DNA of 63,177 nucleotides, filler included, from Atractiella rhizophila (lineage: Eukaryota), in the NCBI GenBank assembly GCA_021432655.1. It is 3 parts of 3 records of this genome, joined end to end, with 100 filler letters (N's around TTAATTAATTAA, not from the genome) between each part and the next. Parts side by side here need not be neighbours in the genome. Positions count along the whole stretch, not along the records: positions 37,424 to 63,177 come from MU271520.1; 2 more parts are not named here. One strand, written 5' to 3'. The first letter of the stretch is position 1. The number at the start of each line of letters is the position of its first letter. The translations under genes were made by a program, and so were the position numbers. This document shows, piece by piece, positions 9,311 to 63,177 of the stretch. Below the pieces are notes generated by a model. The model ran no database searches. It had not been told where the DNA came from and was given only the letters and a program-made list of their open reading frames with translations.

Positions 9311-10566
9311 ATGTCTCCTCCATACCTCATCCTTCTCGCCGCCTCTGCTGTTCTGTACCTGGCAAGGCGAATGCTTAAGAAGAGCCGGGTGGCAGTCATT
9401 GGTAAGGGGGACGAGAGGGTACTCATAATCGGTGCATCCTCGGGTAAGTCTGCTCTGCAACCTCTACTCTTTACCATTTTTCTTTCTTTCCTTTGTGCAT
9501 AGCTGTTTATGGAAACCTCCAGAGCATGACTGTGCCCATCCTAACCATGGAGCACAACCAACAAGCATGGTTATGACTTCTTTAGCTCCTCTGATTCCTG
9601 TCCCTTCACATTCTCTGCCATTTACGCGCATATCTAGTTAACGCACTTAACTGACCTCCATGTTAGGCGTAGGCAAGAATATAGCAGTTCGATATGCATC
9701 TCGTGGCGCCCGCGTTGTGCTCGTAGCAAGGCGAGAAAAACAGTTGCAGGAGGTAGTACAAGAATGTGGGGGGACAGATAGAGTGAAGGCTTTCGTTGGC
9801 GATTTCACAAATATCGATGACCTGGTCCGACTGAAAGGCTTTGTGGAGAGCGGTGAGTGTTTCCTCAATTTCGGACTGTTAGCAACTCACGGTCTCACGG
9901 ACAGAGCTGGGAGGACTCGATACTCTACACATTATCGCTGGCGTCTCCGCCCTTCGTCCTATCATGGACATTCGCTCTGCAACCTCGCCAGACTCCCTCT
10001 CAGCCAACCTTTCCAACCTCTCCTCCATCACGTCTTCCGCCGTCTCAGCCAATTTCCTCGCTCCGCTCCTTGCAGCTTACACCTTCATCCCCCTCCTGAT
10101 ATCCACCTCGAAACAACCAGCGATCCAGCACCTTTCCTCCGTTGCAGCACTCATCCCCGCTCCGACACGCGCCATATACGCATCCACGAAGAGCGGAGCG
10201 CTTGTCGGTCTCAGGGCGTTGGCAATTGAGCAACCGGCGATTAAATGGTCTTTTGTCATCCCCGCGACGATTGAGGGCGATTTTCGGCGCGGAGCTGTGG
10301 ATGCCGGGGAGGTGAAGGAGAAAGTACGTTTCCTCGAACTTCCCCACAGCCGTTGATTCTTTCTGATCGCAATTCTTTAGTTGGATGGCGCGCTGAAGAG
10401 TGACTATGTTGCGAAGGAGTGTGTTAGAGCGGTGGACGAGGGGAAGAAGATGATGATCCTCCCAAGACAGTACTGGCTCTTCTACCTCCTTTCTTACATC
10501 ATACCTAGTGTCGTAGAAAGAGGTGCGAGGAAGAAGTATGCGTACACTGCGCCGAAAGTTGAATAG
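9311..10566 (+). CDS. short-chain dehydrogenase/reductase with N-terminal membrane anchor
   Basis: VLIIGASSG|VGKNIA (GxxxGxG), VLVARR, catalytic Ser (HLSSVAA) and YASTK (YxxxK). Confidence 0.92.
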
Positions 10567-10759
10567 TCCCTATGCTGGCGTCCTGCCGGGGTGGGTTATT
10601 TGGAGTATTGTTATTCAAATCATACCCTGCTCTCTGAGCCAAAGCTTGGTAACAATTCTATATTGCAATGTCTTCCTATTTATTTTCTACAAAGCAACTG
10701 TCTGGTCGCAACAACATACATTTTGAGCTTCGGGGCTGTGTCATATATCCTGTCCTACT

Positions 10760-12001
10760 TCATACGTCAAAGTATTTAGGTGGGTCAGCCTTCACCTGTT
10801 CCCAAACCTTCTCCATCGCATCCATCACATCCTGTTCCAGCGGTCCCTTCGCGAACCAATCCAGGTTCTTCTTCGCTTGCTCCTCGCTACTCGCGCCAAT
10901 AATGATTCCATCGCCCTTCTCCGCGTCTAGGGCAGAGTGATAAGCCAACCAACGGAGTGCGACTTCAGGACCCGTGAGACCTGCTGGCAGGGTTGAGAGC
11001 AGGGTGTCTACGGCCGCATTGACCATGGAGGAGGAGTAGGTTTTCTGAAGGAAAGAAGAGAAGGGGCTCGTGCCTCCCATTCTAAATTGCGAGAGTAAAT
11101 GCGCTGAACTACGGAGGGGAGAACCGTACCGCCCAGATGATGCCTCCTCTGTGCCAAAGCCTTTGGTGTATTTGCCCGTGAAGTATCCTGCAGCCTGAGG
11201 TGCATAGGCGTAGAAGCGTATGTCATGCTTCCTAAGCAAGGGGAGAAGACGGACTTCCATCTGTCTGATCCTTCGGTTACAAATTATTTGGACAATGTAA
11301 ACGAACACCTCACCTCATGATTCCGTTGTAGGCTCCTTGATAGATGCTTGGTTTGACGTATCCATTTTTCTCGCATACCTTCATGCGAAAATTCAATGCT
11401 GTATCGGAGTGGAAAGGAAAGACAACAGACTGCCAAAAGCTCTCCCATTTCTTCCAGCGAGAAATTCGACACTCCAAACTAGCACGCCTGTCAGATGAGA
11501 AGGAAATGGATAACAGGGTGGAAGCGTGCGTACCATGCTGAACTTTCCCTCCCTGAACAGTTCATCAACCGTTTTCATCGTCACATCCAACGAGGTGTTC
11601 TTGTTGGGAGCATGAAGATAGAAACACCTGACTTTATGGGTCTTAAGTCGTTGCAAGCTGATCTCCAAATTCTTCCTCAACACAGAAGGATCATGGCCAT
11701 CTGGTAGAGGGCTGTTTGCTTTGGTATCAATGCGATACCCTTTCGCCGCTGCTTCAGCTTCTCCGATTAATGTTTCAGAACTTCCTGGCGTAACGGGATA
11801 GTAGCGGGCGCTAGTGTCGATAATGCTGTTTGATGAGAAGAGAGAGAGGTAAGAGGAGACTTCGGCAGCCGTGGAAAACCGTGGGACTTGAGGAGAGAAT
11901 TGGGCTGGTGGTTCTTCTGAGCAAAGGTAATTTTGACTGACTACTCGGGCTAGAGACTCACCTCCTCCGATAACGATCTCGGGATACTTGTACGTCGACA
12001 T
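10760..12001 (-). CDS. aldo-keto reductase, AKR7/aflatoxin B1 aldehyde reductase-like
   Basis: IDTKA, FYLHAP, SNFS, FYAYAPQAAGYFTGKY, ALRWLAYHSALDAEKGDGIIIGASS, KGPLEQDV. Confidence 0.9.
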
Positions 12002-21163: not shown

Positions 21164-21263
21164 NNNNNNNNNNNNNNNNNNNNNNNNNNNNNNNNNNNNN
21201 NNNNNNNTTAATTAATTAANNNNNNNNNNNNNNNNNNNNNNNNNNNNNNNNNNNNNNNNNNNN
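21164..21263. other. artificial contig-joining spacer (N44-TTAATTAATTAA-N44)
   Basis: Exactly 100 bp. The palindromic 12-mer gives stops in all six frames. Identical to 37324-37423. Confidence 0.97.
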
Positions 21264-37323: not shown

Positions 37324-37423
37324 NNNNNNNNNNNNNNNNNNNNNNNNNNNNNNNNNNNNNNNNNNNNTTAATTAATTAANNNNNNNNNNNNNNNNNNNNN
37401 NNNNNNNNNNNNNNNNNNNNNNN
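37324..37423. other. artificial contig-joining spacer (N44-TTAATTAATTAA-N44)
   Basis: Same 100-bp construct as 21164-21263. Confidence 0.97.
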
Positions 37424-54836: not shown

Positions 54837-56203
54837 ATGACCCACTTCATCGACCACCATCTCATTCACTCGATCCACACGAAGCATTCCGTGCCTCATC
54901 TTATCATTCATCCTCTCCAATCTCAATCCCATTCACCCACCACCTACCGAACAACGAACGATTCGGATTTCTCTTCTAGCCTCTCTTGCCTCCATTATCC
55001 GTAGCTCTGTACTTTGTCTGATTTTCAAATCGACCCAAATCAAATGGGTGCCTTGGAGTGCTTGATTGGAGGGTGTTTTGCCGGTTTCTTCTCTTCTCCA
55101 TCGAATTTAGTGTCCCATCCTCCTCAAGCCTGCATGATGCATCTCCGACCCATTCTCCTCCTTATTTCCACTCACATCCAATTTAACAGTTCGATTTTCG
55201 TTGTATGAATAGACTGCTTTCAGATAGAAGTTCAGATAGTCGTTGGTGAAGGACGATACGCGCATTTATTCCCTCCACCTCCACCTCTCCTCCCAAACCA
55301 ACTTTGTTCCTTTTTATTCTTTCTCCTTCCCACTTTGGATTTTTCCTTCGTCTCTGCCTTTCAGATTTGTGCGACTTTCAAATCTAACCCTCTACCTCTA
55401 ATAGACTCAGCGTTGTCTCGGGATTCTCTTCTTTTGGGCCTGTCTGGGTCGAATCGTCTGATTCTGCCGTTTGAAAAACCTCTCTCCTCTCTACTCAGCG
55501 TAACTTAGGGCTGGTGATTGCATTGAAATCTATTCTGAATTTAAACATATTTGACCATCGCCGCCACTGAAGCTACTTGAACTGAAATAGTTGCAATGAA
55601 AGACCAGAAACATGAAGGAGGGTGTAAACCCGCACCTGCACTATTGAGGAGAGTTCTTTTCTTAGGACACATCCTCGTTGAGTGGCTCCTTCATGAAGAG
55701 AACTCGGAGAGGAGAAAGTCTAGGACTGAATATGATAACTTCTCGCGCGTGAAGAGATGTTAACGTGGGCCAGCTCAGAGAAGTAGGCATGATCATACAC
55801 TTCCGACTAAGGAACCTCCTGGCCCTGTGCAGAAAAGCCAAGTCTTTCATGCCTCGAAACTACGGGCACAGGAAGTAGTGATTGTGAACTTGTGTAAATC
55901 GATGCAAAGGCGTTCTTTGGCTGCCACGCCATAACTTAGCTCGATATCCGTGTCGAAGGAGTTGTGAGCTGACCTTTAAAGTTCTTGGCTGTGCATAGTC
56001 AGGAATCCGCTGGCGCACAGTACGTTTGGAAAATACGACCACGGAGCTTTCGCAGTTCGGAAGTAATTACTTAGGACGCGGCTGTAACTCTCAACATAAA
56101 AGGACCAAGAGGACATCCATACCTCCTCCATCCATTTCTCTCACGAACCAGCACCCTCTAACCCCCCTTACGACTCCATTTCTCCTCCGAATACATTACG
56201 AAA

Positions 56204-57227
56204 ATGAGTAGACACTTTCTGTTTTGGTGCGCCTCTCCTTCCTTTGTTGGTATCAATGGAAACTGTGTTGAGAGGAAATGTGGGATGGAACAGTCTCCCC
56301 GTCCGATTTGGAGTGTTTATCCTATCCCTGTTCGGATTCTTGGGTAATGCCCTGACGGCCTTTGGAATCTTTTTCCAGCTTCGACGTGCGTTGCTTCCCT
56401 GCCCGCCAAGAGAAGGTCTCATTTTGCTTCGGTGACAGGTCTGGATAGCCCACCGAAAAGCATCCTCATACCAGCGATTGTGTATGGATCAATTGCTGCC
56501 ATCTGTTCATTGCTCTCCTTGCTCGGATTCTTCGGCTCCATCTTCAGGAACAGGCGCCTCGTGAAGGCGTTTGCTTGGGCTCAAACTGTAAGCATTTCTT
56601 CATCCCTTGGCATATGGCCGTGGCTGACATTTTGTGGTTGAAAAGTACCAATTGGGAGTTTACATCGCTACTGGCGTCTTTTACATCGTTTTCCTGTTCA
56701 CTAACCGTGACAAGATCGAACGCGACTGGTAAGTCTTGTCCTTGTCACCGTCTCAGCAATCTGTACAGAGCTGACTGTGGTGCAGCTTGAAGGCGCTCGA
56801 CAAGGTCGACAATGCCGACGACATTTGCCACGACCTGTCCTCCACGAACCGCTACATCTTCCTCGCCGTCTTCATCCTCCAAATCTTCATCCAATTCTAC
56901 CTCATCCACATCACCCGTTCCTACGTCCGACAACTCGAAGAGACCTCCTACAAGGCGCTTCAAACCTCCCGCGGCTTCCCGACCAGCACCTTGTTCGGCA
57001 ATCAACCCCGTTCCTCCGTCTCTGGTGATCGCGTCCCTGCTACACCGTCAGGTCCGATGCCTAGCTATCACCCCATTATGAACCCTGGCGCTAATAGCTC
57101 CAGGACCGGATTGGTCACTGGGGAGAGGAAGGAGCATTATGGCGATGAGAAGGACGATTTGGAGAGGGCTGATGACGATGGACCGTACTCGTCCCCTTAC
57201 CAGGTCCCGTACACCGATAAGCATTGA
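56204..57227 (+). CDS. fungal four-TM (tetraspanin-like) membrane protein
   Basis: MSRHFLFC|LPVRFGVFILSLFG, SLLGFFGSIFRNRRLVKAF, lumenal Cys pair, IFLAVFILQIFIQFYLIHITRSYVRQL. Confidence 0.75.
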
Positions 57228-57640
57228 AGAAGAGCTGGCAGGTAAGGAAGCAGAGTAGGATGGACGGAAGGGAATGGACTTTTACTGTGCGCTCGTGTCA
57301 GACGCTTTTTGTAGCTATACAACTAGGATGCAAGACTGTCATGCTCATTTTTCGTACACAGCGAACGAGTGAAACAGACACCCACATAATTTCCTTGCAT
57401 TAAGCTGCAGCATTTGTCTTGACTAACCCATTACGTTCAGTATCTCGCGCTCATCATAGACTGTGTTCGGGACCGCTTTCCATAGACAATCAACGCTACA
57501 TTTTGCAGTTTAGCAATCAAGTCATCGAGTACTCATCCCTGACGTCCTGACCACTCTCCAATGCTTTCTACGGCACTGTAACTGTGGGCTTTCGAAAACG
57601 CTGGACACGTCTCGCGTAATCGACGACTTTGGAGGCAGAA

Positions 57641-59177
57641 ATGGATTTGCCGCTCGTCTCTTCGTCCCTCCTCCACTTCACAACCAATACAGCCAGCGTA
57701 GGCTCCCTACTCTGGCTCTTATCTTCTTATGCTCGCCCTTCAACCGTTTCTTCGGCACAGGATGGAGGAGGAAGCGAGGGCGGAGTGCCAATTGCTCTGT
57801 TATTTGGGGTAATTACTTTGACTGCATGGGCTTTTAGCAGGCAAAAGGACGTGTACATGGCTGTGGAACAGAAGGTGGAGGGTGTATTGGGTCTCATTGT
57901 TGGCTTCCTTGCTGGGATTGGCGCTGTTCTGTCGTTGTGGAGCTTGGGAGCAAGTTCGGAGGGAAATGCTGCTATTTTGGCTGTTGAGGTGGGTTTTGCT
58001 CTTTGTCTTGCAATTGGGTCTTCGCTTGCTAGCAAAACATCTGTGAATATATATAAGACCATATCATGATGGATAATAGTTTGAGGCCGAACGAAGCTGA
58101 TGTTTGGTGGTGCAGCCTCCTCTCCTGCTGCTTCTCTCCCTCGTCCACTCCCTCCCACTCCTCACCTCCCTTTCCCGCCTCTCCCTCCTCGCAGTCGCCC
58201 TCCTGATCCTCCAAATTCCAACTTCACTCTCTCAAGAAGCATTCAAGGTCTTCTTTTCCAACTTCGGAATGCGCGTCGTTGGATTTGGGCTAGTATGGTG
58301 GAGCAAAGCAAATGGACTCAGAGGAAGAAGCGCGGTTGTATGTGAGATTGCTCCTCTCATCTTGTTTCCCTATCGCGCGGATACAAAGCTAATTGAGGCG
58401 AACGAAGACGGCAGCATGTACAGCCTTTCTTCTCTCTCTGTCATTCGAGCGGCCATCCCTCCACGGCTTCATTTTTCGCCTTTCCCTCCATGACGGCGTT
58501 TTGATGGGAACCTACGTTCTTTCCAGCTTGGCTTCAAGAGTGACCTATATATCTCTCTCTGACTTAGGATACAGTCAGCTACTACCTCCCCTCTCTTCAC
58601 TCTCGACGCTCGTTATTCTCACCTACCTGCGACTTTCTTCCTCCTTCTTGGCTTCGGTCGCAGGGTTCGCCATGGGCAGCTTCACCATCTACGCCCTAAC
58701 GGTTCTGTCTTTCACTCGCAGTTCCCATCCTTTCACACAATCCCAAATATCGAGTAGGCTCAGAAGTGTCGGAATGGGTGGGAGAGGGCATCAAGGAACG
58801 AGTTCACAAAGCAGCAGTGTAGAATTATTTGCACCGATCCCTGTCCAAAGTCATGGACAAGGACACATGAGGAATAGGAGCAAAGACAGCATGAGTTACA
58901 CCGTGGATGCGAGTGGATGGAACGAAGAGAGCGACGGAAACACACCCGTATCAGCCTTCGCCTTCTCCACCAACACCTCGCCCGCTTCCCAAGGGATGGC
59001 GATAATGACCCGCTCCCGCTCCGCAGGTTCCATCGCCTCCTCTCACTCCCCCGATCCGGTCTCGAAGCAACGAATCATCTTCCAGGCGCTTTGGAGCTTG
59101 GTGTATCTCTTCCTCCTCGTCCTCCCACATGCACCCCACCTCCGTGACCGTCTTCCCATCGCTTCCGTCCTCGATCC
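57641..59177 (+). CDS. 5' part of a multi-pass membrane protein whose frame continues into the mirrored segment (GT77-like domain)
   Basis: Hydrophobic exons ~57641-58042, 58116-58337 and ~58408-59177. A Ser-rich linker precedes TM IIFQALWSLVYLFLLVLP. The apparent stop at 59179 coincides with the mirror junction. Confidence 0.7.
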
Positions 59178-60240
59178 GTAGTAGTTTGAATCGCGGGTTG
59201 CTGTTCGACGAGAAGGAGAAGTTAGGGTGGAAGGAGGGGAGCGGGAGAGATTAGTTTCTGAGGTTTAGGGAGTGGGAGCGGCGTGACTGGCGTAAGAGGG
59301 AGAGGTTTGGGCGGTTGGACGGGGAGTTGACGCGGTTTTCGCTAGGGTTGCGGCGTAGGAGGAGAAGGAGGGTGGGTGGAAGGTGAGGGCAGGGCGGGGG
59401 GCAGGGTGAGGGTACAGGCGAAGGCGAAGGTGACACTCTCCTTTCGACCGCTACTGCTCCGCCTCCGCCTGCGTACCCGCTGCGCTCGGGTAGGCAGTTA
59501 GGACAGTGCAGGCCTTGGGCGTCTGCCGGAAAGGGCTCTACGCGCACGCTCTCCCTCCCGAGCACACAACAGCGCGCCCTCAACATCCCACGCTCTTCCC
59601 CGCCCCGCCTAAACCTCTAACTCCTCTACCACCTCAGCTGCAGCTCCTGCTGAGCGGCCGGACTGCTCCAACCAAAAACCTGCCACCTAACGTAGCCACC
59701 TCTCCCCTCCGAACCAACCCAACAAAAAGAAACTTACAACTCAAACCACGCTTCTACGGCCCACCACATACCCTACCAACCTGCATCCTCGGCTAAACTC
59801 GCGCCTCGGGTACTACCGAAGCTTGAGGGAGGACTCGAGAAAGCGAGCTAACAGGTAGAGGTAAGAGGTAGGGGTGGAGGAGGGGTGGAGGAGGGAAGAA
59901 GAAAGGTTGGTTTTGGAGTGGAGAGAATCGGCCACCCGGCGCCGCATCTTCGGTTCGAGAGACCTTTCAGGCAGTTCAAGGGTTAGGGGGGGAGGGGAGG
60001 GTTGGAAGTTGACATAGAGTAGGAGTCTGAGACTGTTGCCACGGACCCGTCAGACGAAGCCGGGTCTTCTTCTTCTTGCGAGCTACTCCGGTGGTCTTCT
60101 CTCAACCTCACGTACTACGGCTCCTACCTCGCCGGCCCCCCTGCTTCGCTCCACCCACCGCCTAACTCCCACCCTACCGGACCTACCTGCCTCCGCCTCC
60201 CTGCGTCGCAACCGCAGTAACCCTTGCCGCTGTACAAAAG
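59178..60240. CDS. hidden (mirror-read) partial gene, coiled-coil protein resembling fungal Cep57/Ppc89 spindle-pole-body proteins
   Basis: Mirror frame open from at least 59700 to 59178: RLRVPDVTGLTDGLASP...LLAQLRGRLAGLERENAVSAARVRDLESLI. Upstream part appears frameshifted. Confidence 0.5.
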
Positions 60241-60486
60241 CGACACCAGACCCACCAAGTGAGCAGGAGTTTAGGACGGAGTTTAGCAACCAGCAAGACT
60301 ACGCTTTAACAACAACAATAATGACACTCAGTGATTGCGCACTAGAACAGTGTACTAAATTGAAGTGGGTTCGTTACCTGTTTTTACCTCACTATCCCTT
60401 TCTTAATAATCCTAAGGAGATGCCAAATTATGTGTGTACGTTGAGGAGTTTTTTCGCTGTAACATGTTCTTTTCGCTTATGAGGTA

Positions 60487-62062
60487 GATGTCGAGGAGGA
60501 AGGAGGAGGCTGTGTCGAGGAATGTGGGGCTGTGGAAAAGGTGGAGGACCGTGTAGAGGTGGAGGCAGGAGGTGAGGTCGCCATAGAGGGTGACGGGTAT
60601 TGCCGAGGTGGCAGGGCGGCCCGGAAGTAGGCAGTGCTAGGAGTGCACAGAGGAAAGGGACTTGCAAAGGAGGAGGTTGGCTAAGAGTTCCATGCTGGTG
60701 TCGGTCTCACCGGCATCCAGGTATAGACGCCCAGCGTCCAGTCTCTCCAACCGTCACCATACAACCTCTATTAATCCGAGCTCCTCCCACTCCCATCCCG
60801 CCCTCTCCCTCTCCGCAAGCTCCAGCTACTGCCTGGTCTACTTCGCAGCCACCTCGGACTGGGGAACGGGGAGAAAGGGTAGCGGTGACTACTGTCAGTC
60901 TCGCGAGTCAAGCCCCAAACGCAGCAGACACGGCAGGAGCCCTCTCTACCCTCGCTCGTGCAGCCGCTTCTCCCCGTCCTCCTCTCGCGCCAGCGAAACC
61001 TCTCGCCGTCGCTGCTCGTCAACTTGACACCTAACCTAGAGCCGTCCACAAGGTCTCTCTCTCCGCTACCTCTCATACGCACCTCCCTCCTCATCATCCT
61101 AGGTTGCAGAACGGTCATCGGTATACGCCGCCGCTACTTCTTGAAGTTCTTGATTGAGTGTTTAGTCAGTGAAGGTCGTTTTCTAACGTTTCTCTTCCTC
61201 GCGTGTCATCAGAGCGTTGTTCAGTATACGTTAGGGTGCGGAAGAAGGGTGTGCTTGGTTGGGTATACAGGTGGGGTTTTTATGGATCCGAGTTCGTGGG
61301 AGTGAGAGTAGGGTAAGGAGGGGTACTTGAGGTAGCGGACGAGGCGGAGCAAAGGCGGAAGGTGAAGAGCAGGTCGAAGGCTGAAGTTGTGCAGTAAGTG
61401 TACCAGAACTAGGGTGGGCGGCAGGCGCAGCTCCGCCGCCTCCTGAAGCTGGGTCTCGCTAAACCTCTCCCCGCTTCCCCCCACCGACTTCTTAGGCTAC
61501 AACTGGGTGGCAGACACCGGAAGCAAGACCTAGACGTTTAGGGTAAAAGGAAGCAGCAGAAGGTACTATAGGGTACCCAGAGACATACTACATAGTTAGA
61601 AAAAGAAGAAGTACTTGTTCCCTCCTTTCTTGTTTGGAGAAGTCCTTCTTCAGAGGTAGTCGTTTCTGGTGGGAGGTTAGGAGGCGGTGGAGGTGGTTGG
61701 GCGAATAGAATCGGGATTGGCGAGCGGAGTAGACGAGGAGAAATAGGAAGCGGTGGAGGAGTATTAGGACGTTCTTTCGGGTTTGAGGGTAGAAAGGTGT
61801 GACAAGGTCTGTTGGAAGCAGATTTGTGTCTTGTTCGTCAAGGAGAGAGGGAGAGGGGCTTCGCACAAGCGACAAGTTCAACCTGTCTTTGTAGCTATCC
61901 ACCCTGCAGCGTACCCTTCGTATGTTACATAGCCGATGACAATCGGTGTTTCGTACCCAGGGGTGACAGCCCTACAATTGGTTGTCGAGTCAGTTTAAGC
62001 AGGGAGAGTAGACATAGCCGAACTGCGACAGTAACCCTCTGTTGCGCTCCCTTCGCAAGGTT
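60487..62062. CDS. hidden (mirror-read 62062->60487) nucleotide-diphospho-sugar transferase, GT77/Nucleotid_trans-like
   Basis: WNASLALSP...LWLTVADTLYA...LLVLCLDEGCLEQC...AKISGLVEVAEDWRVVFADGDFFLKRDPW...DLQIQNE...VNIGFF...WDQDHVNDVL...RVRVLEPRYF...LHMTCC...AYGYWQDVGSYY, then a 1-nt frameshift near 61085, then AALQSDRALLLP...CKELCRRRKEEL*. Confidence 0.82.
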
Positions 62063-62087
62063 NNNNNNNNNNNNNNNNNNNNNNNNN
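62063..62087. other. 25-N assembly gap
   Basis: Run of exactly 25 N between the mirrored segment and a duplicated segment. Confidence 0.97.
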
Positions 62088-63177
62088 CGTTCCTACGTCC
62101 GCCAACTCGAAGAGACCTCCTACAAGGCGCTTCAGACCTCCCGCGGCTTCCCGACCAGCACCTTGTTCGGCAATCAACCCCGCTCCTCCGTCTCTGGTGA
62201 TCGCGTGCCTGCTACACCATCAGGTCCTATGCCTAGCTATCACCCCATTATGAACCCAGCTGCTAATAGCTCCAGGACCGGATTGGTCACTGGGGAGAGG
62301 AAGGAGCATTATGGGGATGAGAAGGACGATTTGGAGAGGGCGGATGACGATGGACCGTACTCGTCCCCTTACCAGGTCCCGTACACCGATAAGCATTGAA
62401 GAAGAGCCGGTAGGAAAGGAAGCAGAGTAGGATGGAGGGAAGGGAATGGACATTTACTGTGCGCTTGTGTCAGACGCTTTTTGTAGCTATACAACCAGGA
62501 TGCAAGACTGTCATGCTCATTTTTCGTACACAGCGAACGAGTGAAACAGACCCCCGCATAATTTTACCTGCATTAAGCTGCAGCATTTGTCTTGAGTAAC
62601 CCATTACGTTCAGTATCTCGCGCTCATCATAGATTTTGTTCGGGACCGCTTTCCACAGACAATCAACGCTACATTTTGCAGTTTAGCAATCAAGTCATCG
62701 AGTACTCATCCCTGACGTCCTGACCACTCTCCGATGCTTTCTACGGCACTGTAACCGTGGGCTTTCGAAAACACTGGACACGTCTCGCCGTGATCGACGA
62801 CTTTGGAGGCAGAAATGGACTTACCACTCGTCTCTTCGTCCCTCCTCCACTTCACAACCAATACAGCCAGCGTAGGCTCCCTACTCTGGCTCTTATCTTC
62901 TTATGCTCGCCCTTCAACCGTCTCTTCGGCACAGGATGGAGGAGGAGGAGTGCCAGTTGCTCTGTTATTTGGGATAATTACTTTGACTGCATGGGCTTTT
63001 AGCAGGCAAAAGGACGTGTACATGGCTGTGGAACAGAAGGCGGAGGGTGTATCAAGTCTCTTTGTTGGTTTCCTTGCTGGCGTTGGCGCTGTTCTGTCGT
63101 TGTGGAGCTTGGGAGCAAGTTCGGAGGGAAATGCTGCTATTTTGGCTGTTGAGGTGGGTTTTGCTCTTTGTCTTGCA
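62088..63177 (+). repeat. diverged duplicate (likely second haplotype) of 56916-58012: 3' end of the 4-TM gene and 5' end of the TM-GT77 gene
   Basis: Collinear match from cgttcctacgtcc to ctttgtcttgca, with mostly substitutions and an in-frame 9-nt deletion (DGGGSEGGVP to DGGGGVP). Confidence 0.93.

Follow-up and report, generated by a model that had tools for sequence, protein, structure and literature searches.

The gap filler PBJelly gives every gap that it fails to close a length of exactly 25 N. A gap is defined for this tool by at least 25 N (PMC3504050), which agrees with a default minimum gap of 25 (PMC6240028). Flanks are extended by it into the gaps, and the gaps called overfilled often arise from negative gaps, which in one genome accounted for 44% of them (PMC3504050). 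The locus described here resembles the extended and overfilled gaps of PBJelly in that sequence appears to have been added at a contig end facing a gap, the 25 N of which equal the gap threshold (English et al. 2012, PMC3504050), and it resembles a negative gap in that the next contig duplicates earlier sequence (PMC3504050). It differs in being reversed without being complemented, an output that is not described for PBJelly in the excerpted parts of its publication (PMC3504050). Another familiar error is the misoriented contig or inversion misassembly, in which, as here, a block adjoining a gap stands in an order contrary to the true genome and a gene is broken; such a block, however, still translates and finds its homologues on the other strand, whereas the block studied here does so on neither. 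A further likeness, to the nucleotide-diphospho-sugar transferases of family PF03407, concerns the gene inside the artefact and not the artefact, and comes from a protein, P0001, that carries the domain and is 93-99% identical to the mirrored exons. A literature search for published reports of reversed-not-complemented blocks in assemblies found none, only unrelated uses of the phrases.

The window, that is, the whole stretch of 63,177 nucleotides of Atractiella rhizophila DNA (filler included; assembly GCA_021432655.1) that was analysed, looks like fungal DNA: its introns are short and of the GT..AG type, and its G+C content is about 50%. Within it, the block from 59178 to 62062 is a sequence-handling artefact and not biology: true genomic sequence stands there in its correct place but in the wrong direction. 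Its letters are those of the same strand in reversed order, or, put otherwise, those of the opposite strand complemented without reversal, so that the genuine continuation of position 59177 is position 62062, from which the sequence runs leftwards to 59178. A mirror segment with exactly these limits had been predicted, and every coordinate given for it holds. The features of the locus are as follows.

56916..58012, plus strand: copy A of a duplicated flank, with the 3' end of gene X (stop 57225-57227) and the first exon of gene 1
57641..59177, plus strand: native 5' part of gene 1, exons 57641-57988, 58116-58337 and 58408-59177, about 451 codons, ending in mid-codon
59178..62062, no strand assigned: mirrored block, 2885 bases in 3'->5' order on the same strand, uncomplemented
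61637..62062, read right to left: remainder of gene 1 exon 3, P0001 residues 452-593
61582..61636, read right to left: intron of 55 nt, GT..AG, from the sequence and the alignment with P0001
61206..61581, read right to left: gene 1 exon 4, with most of the PF03407 domain
61152..61205, read right to left: intron of 54 nt, GT..AG, from the sequence and the alignment with P0001
60487..61151, read right to left: last exon of gene 1, P0001 residues 741-939, with the stop codon TAG at 60489->60487
59178..60234, read right to left: start of a putative second gene, mirrored ATG at 60234->60232, truncated at the end of the patch
62063..62087, no strand assigned: assembly gap of 25 N, directly after the block
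62088..63177, plus strand: copy B at the start of the next contig, 1090 bases, 95% identical (1044/1099) to 56916-58012

The reversal shows in a broken reading frame. A plus-strand frame open from 58393 ends with gat cc at 59177, and in the sequence as written a stop follows at 59179-59181. When the block is instead read leftwards from 62062 on the same strand, the interrupted frame stays open for 417 codons in total, about 155 of which lie past the join. The continuity of the gene is thus regained at the exact border by reading the same strand backwards, and the border falls at residues 451/452 of P0001, corresponding to 59177/59178.

P0001, deposited as 'hypothetical protein BT69DRAFT_1349379 [Atractiella rhizophila]', is a protein of 939 aa carrying PF03407. 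It was found with the native exon only as the query (58672-59177, 168 aa) among proteins of 295-2000 aa, where it was the single match, at 94% identity; among proteins of 92-294 aa the same 168-aa query had no match, and over the whole range of 92-2000 aa it brought up no erroneous gene model of the locus in the protein databases. P0001 residues 1-136, 142-199 and 187-451 align within the native part at 57641..59177, and from residue 452 to its last residue and the stop codon the protein is colinear with the reversed block. Against the latter it gives three HSPs, with tblastn E values of 3.7e-171 and 6.9e-127 and 93-99% identity per exon, which bears out the protein homology anticipated for the reversed version. 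The alignments across and beyond the join are these.

58396-59178, plus strand, native: P0001 residues 187-451, 94% identity
62061->61636, mirrored: P0001 residues 452-593, 141/142 identical
61583->61173, mirrored: P0001 residues 593-729, 127/137 identical
61086->60490, mirrored: P0001 residues 741-939, 193/199 identical

Judged by the alignment with P0001, the introns predicted at 61636->61582 and 61205->61152 and the TAG at 60489-60487 all lie at those very positions, and a homopolymer frameshift, likewise foreseen, corresponds to the sole frame change against P0001 within 488 codons, at the C-run 61085-61087. Gene 1 encodes a membrane protein that crosses the membrane several times and has a glycosyltransferase domain of family PF03407. 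In P0001 this domain spans residues 524-717 (Pfam, 47.4 bits against a cut-off of 22, E 3.1e-12); the score is that of P0001, and over the domain P0001 and the mirrored exons are 93-99% identical. Since the domain occupies residues 524-717, the whole catalytic domain sits in the hidden part. The organism thus carries an unremarkable glycosyltransferase gene of 935-939 codons that looks intact, and the last 488 of these codons, with the whole of PF03407, lie in the block. An origin of the patch from a different source, suggested by the rise of P0001 identity from 94% to 99% at the join, was considered and rejected: the other mirrored exons are at 93% and 97%, and the N-terminal part is of low complexity.

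An ordinary inversion, that is, a reverse complement or a misoriented contig that has been misdescribed, is a rival reading, misoriented contigs being the usual scaffold error beside gaps. It is ruled out by tblastn on both strands, in which residues 452-939 of P0001 had no match in 57001-63177 as written. The open frames are in line with this: as written, the block has stop-free stretches of at most 154, 138 and 128 codons in its three best frames out of six, and reversal without complementing raises these to 355, 246 and 231 codons. The composition of the DNA, assessed independently of any homology, also speaks against an inversion. Hexamer log-odds were computed for the written versus the mirrored direction, with both strands pooled, and were trained by leave-one-out on the rest of the window; such a pooled statistic is insensitive to reverse-complementing but sensitive to plain reversal, and it still flips its sign in the block. 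An inversion in the usual sense is therefore given next to no probability.

With a model trained on the remainder of the window, the written direction is preferred by all 1-kb windows but those that overlap the block. By the leave-one-out statistic, all native 1-kb windows (59/59) score above 0, with a mean of 164, a standard deviation of 57 and a minimum of 9.8, whereas the two 1-kb windows wholly inside the block are both negative, at -166 and -216. With 400-nt windows, 5 of 148 native ones are weakly negative (minimum -27.8) versus 7 of 7 inside the block. The turning points of the cumulative score, about 59174 and about 62122, coincide with the predicted borders. The mirror signal of the block is far beyond chance, and a hexamer scan of the whole window revealed no further mirrored block of similar size. 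The only native 400-nt windows that are clearly negative are 55601-56000 (-26.7) and 10401-10800 (-27.8); their signal is far below that of the block and is probably due to the base composition there.

Evidence from outside the assembly came from public sequencing runs, in the form of contigs and not of raw reads. From 24 public runs sharing words with 56000-62062, the best four were compared (X1-X4), of which X1 is DNA-like, X3 is spliced and hence RNA-like, and X4 comes from a more distant relative. In X3, spliced joints of gene 1 were seen at 57986/58114 (cut +2) and 58337/58408, both GT..AG, and these joints define the native coding exons of gene 1 listed above, which the three mirrored pieces follow. 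Depth is present in all 16 bins up to 59247 in 4/4 runs, and contigs of three of them (X1, X3 and X4) stop matching at exactly 59177 and then continue with unlike letters. Past 59177, the 30-letter consensus shared by X1 and X3 agrees at 30/30 letters with 62062->62033 read as a mirror, and the continuation in X4 differs from that mirror at 4 letters; the written sequence at 59178-59207 agrees with the consensus of X1 and X3 at just 8/30, and no copy of their 30-mer occurs on either strand of the written window when up to 3 mismatches are allowed. The original prediction had held that reads should not support the written order at 59177/59178, and it is borne out in that three of the four runs leave at 59177, two of them with the exact mirror. 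On the native side, the contigs that span the junction show about 4% divergence (21/517 and 18/503 letters), so that their source may be a copy other than copy A, or another strain. In the 14 bins of 59248-62062 depth is zero in 4/4 runs, which is not counted as evidence by itself, since the runs consist of contigs and some records are removed by a filter.

The written order is thus contradicted by read-derived contigs at the very limit where the frame and the protein alignment place the reversal. A segment joined into DNA in reversed and uncomplemented form needs 3'-3' and 5'-5' joins of the strands, and no process of recombination or replication is known to yield such joins. That the block is nevertheless real DNA of the strain, either a 'mirror' arisen de novo or an unrelated insertion that reads well backwards by chance, has nothing in its favour besides the written sequence. 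Three runs depart at 59177 and go on with mirrored letters, a protein identity of 93-99% over 488 residues in the mirrored reading only excludes chance, and the polarity of DNA strands forbids a join of this kind; real strain DNA is accordingly of negligible probability and in effect refuted. The software artefact claimed at the outset, in a region that as written is not annotatable, is supported by the homology of the reversed version together with the contigs from reads.

How the artefact arose can be proposed from its surroundings. Very probably, a strand-handling error was made when the end of a contig was extended into a scaffold gap, leaving 59178-62062 mirrored. The contig would truly have ended at 59177 and been extended into the gap by about 2.9 kb of genuine genomic sequence, and the pasting program or script would have either reversed the extension uncomplemented or complemented a minus-strand sequence unreversed, the resulting letters being identical. 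The extension would then have found no overlap with the next contig, leaving a minimal gap of 25 N. The reason for the missing overlap would be that the next contig opens with a second copy, 95% identical and either paralogous or allelic, of a segment situated 2.3 kb ahead of the first contig's end. In the genome itself, the gene 1 part of the block would be followed by an intergenic stretch and then probably by the start of another gene.

Both neighbours of the block were indeed as predicted, the 25-N gap being located at 62063-62087 and the duplicated flank at 62088-63177, which matches 56916-58012 at 1044/1099. The traits of a patch are a contig end and the abutting 25 N. A single change of frame over 488 codons, at the C-run 61085-61087, is weak evidence of the errors of raw long reads and may be a genuine divergence of the copies. 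A long-read gap extension would fit the contig end, the 25-N gap, the 95% duplicate and the homopolymer frame change. The causal step and the tool, the long-read origin of the patch, and the presence of the error in the public record are inferences.

A different origin of the error would be a reversal added after deposition, by reformatting, concatenation or preparation of the window, and not by a gap filler. The window is itself concatenated, with two joiners of 100 bases, so sequences were handled by a downstream script, and no protein from this locus besides P0001 is found in the databases with the native exon query, both of which points agree with a late reversal. The joiners, at 21164-21263 and 37324-37423, are identical, each consisting of the 12-mer TTAATTAATTAA with 44 N on either side; this 12-mer reads the same on both strands and gives a stop in each of the six frames. 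They look like artificial linkers, by which at least three sequences would be concatenated in the window, and flanking genes need not be neighbours. The block, however, lies inside one piece, with a contig end and a 25-N gap as its borders and not joiners, and a concatenation script acts on entire pieces and would not single out the final 2885 bases in front of an internal gap. A reversal after deposition is hence considered unlikely, and an error during gap extension is preferred.

Behind the stop codon of gene 1, the block read leftwards continues with an A+T-rich spacer, which separates this stop from the mirrored ATG at 60234->60232, and then from 60234 to 59178 with several open frames (355, 246 and 231 codons) that switch. 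The segment 59178..60234 is also strongly mirrored by the hexamer signal, and a codon-usage profile for it (trained on 5 long ORFs, 2101 codons) was too weak for frame calling. A putative second gene in mirrored 60234->59178 is plausible from the open frames. Two hidden genes had been claimed; one is proven, namely gene 1 by P0001, while what the other offers is open frames. Mirrored 60486->59178 had no tblastx match in the whole window and is therefore not a paralogue of gene X. A scan of metagenomes with P0001 for correctly oriented DNA returned 23 pattern matches and no relative. The idea that the second gene runs on into the ORF after the gap was ruled out, since that ORF begins in the middle of a gene X exon and belongs to the gene X copy; from this it also follows that the patch ends at 59178 without reaching the next contig.

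The block is not biologically new, and its value is that of a warning for databases and quality control. A mirrored error escapes the standard tools, for neither strand translates and BLAST matches nothing; a gene finder would stop gene 1 falsely at 59179-59181, after about 451 codons and without its catalytic domain. The hexamer statistic for the written versus the mirrored direction placed the block within a few bases without homology and is usable assembly-wide. Tentatively, and with the odds rather against it, the error may be a systematic bug in the gap-extension or patching step, in which case further contig ends beside 25-N gaps would carry mirrored patches, in this assembly and perhaps also in public ones that the same pipeline produced. 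If true, such a bug silently deletes genes from annotations and survives quality control by six-frame translation and BLAST. Notification of the submitter and the database is advised, leading to correction of the record.

The duplication at the gap was characterised further. Copy B opens partway through the final exon of gene X, the upstream membrane-protein gene, continues through intergenic DNA, and ends in the first exon of a second copy of gene 1, with its ATG at 62815. In copy A, the gene X exon is unbroken from the 56727/56785 joint through 56916. Both variants of the copies were seen in the runs, with copy-B letters at a depth of 117 of 292 in X2 at 57011-57089, and P0001 represents a third variant, agreeing over its first exon with copy A at 106/116 and with copy B at 100/116. 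The locus is repeated or heterozygous, a setting in which short-read contigs break and gap fillers struggle, and the copies may belong to a small gene family, tandem or segmental, or else be haplotypes that the assembly did not separate.

Some minor observations were made in the same contigs. At 58151-58197, up to three variants of similar depth were seen in X1 and X2. In X3, the second intron of gene 1 showed alternative donors, 58337/58408 (depth 102.6) and 58341/58408 (depth 33), the latter of which adds 4 bases and would change the reading frame. The summed contig depth of X3 over the 3' end of gene X at 56812-57420 amounts to 22,800-45,300 versus about 60-230 over the glycosyltransferase gene, and this depth, though a poor measure when taken from contigs, hints at a very high expression of gene X.
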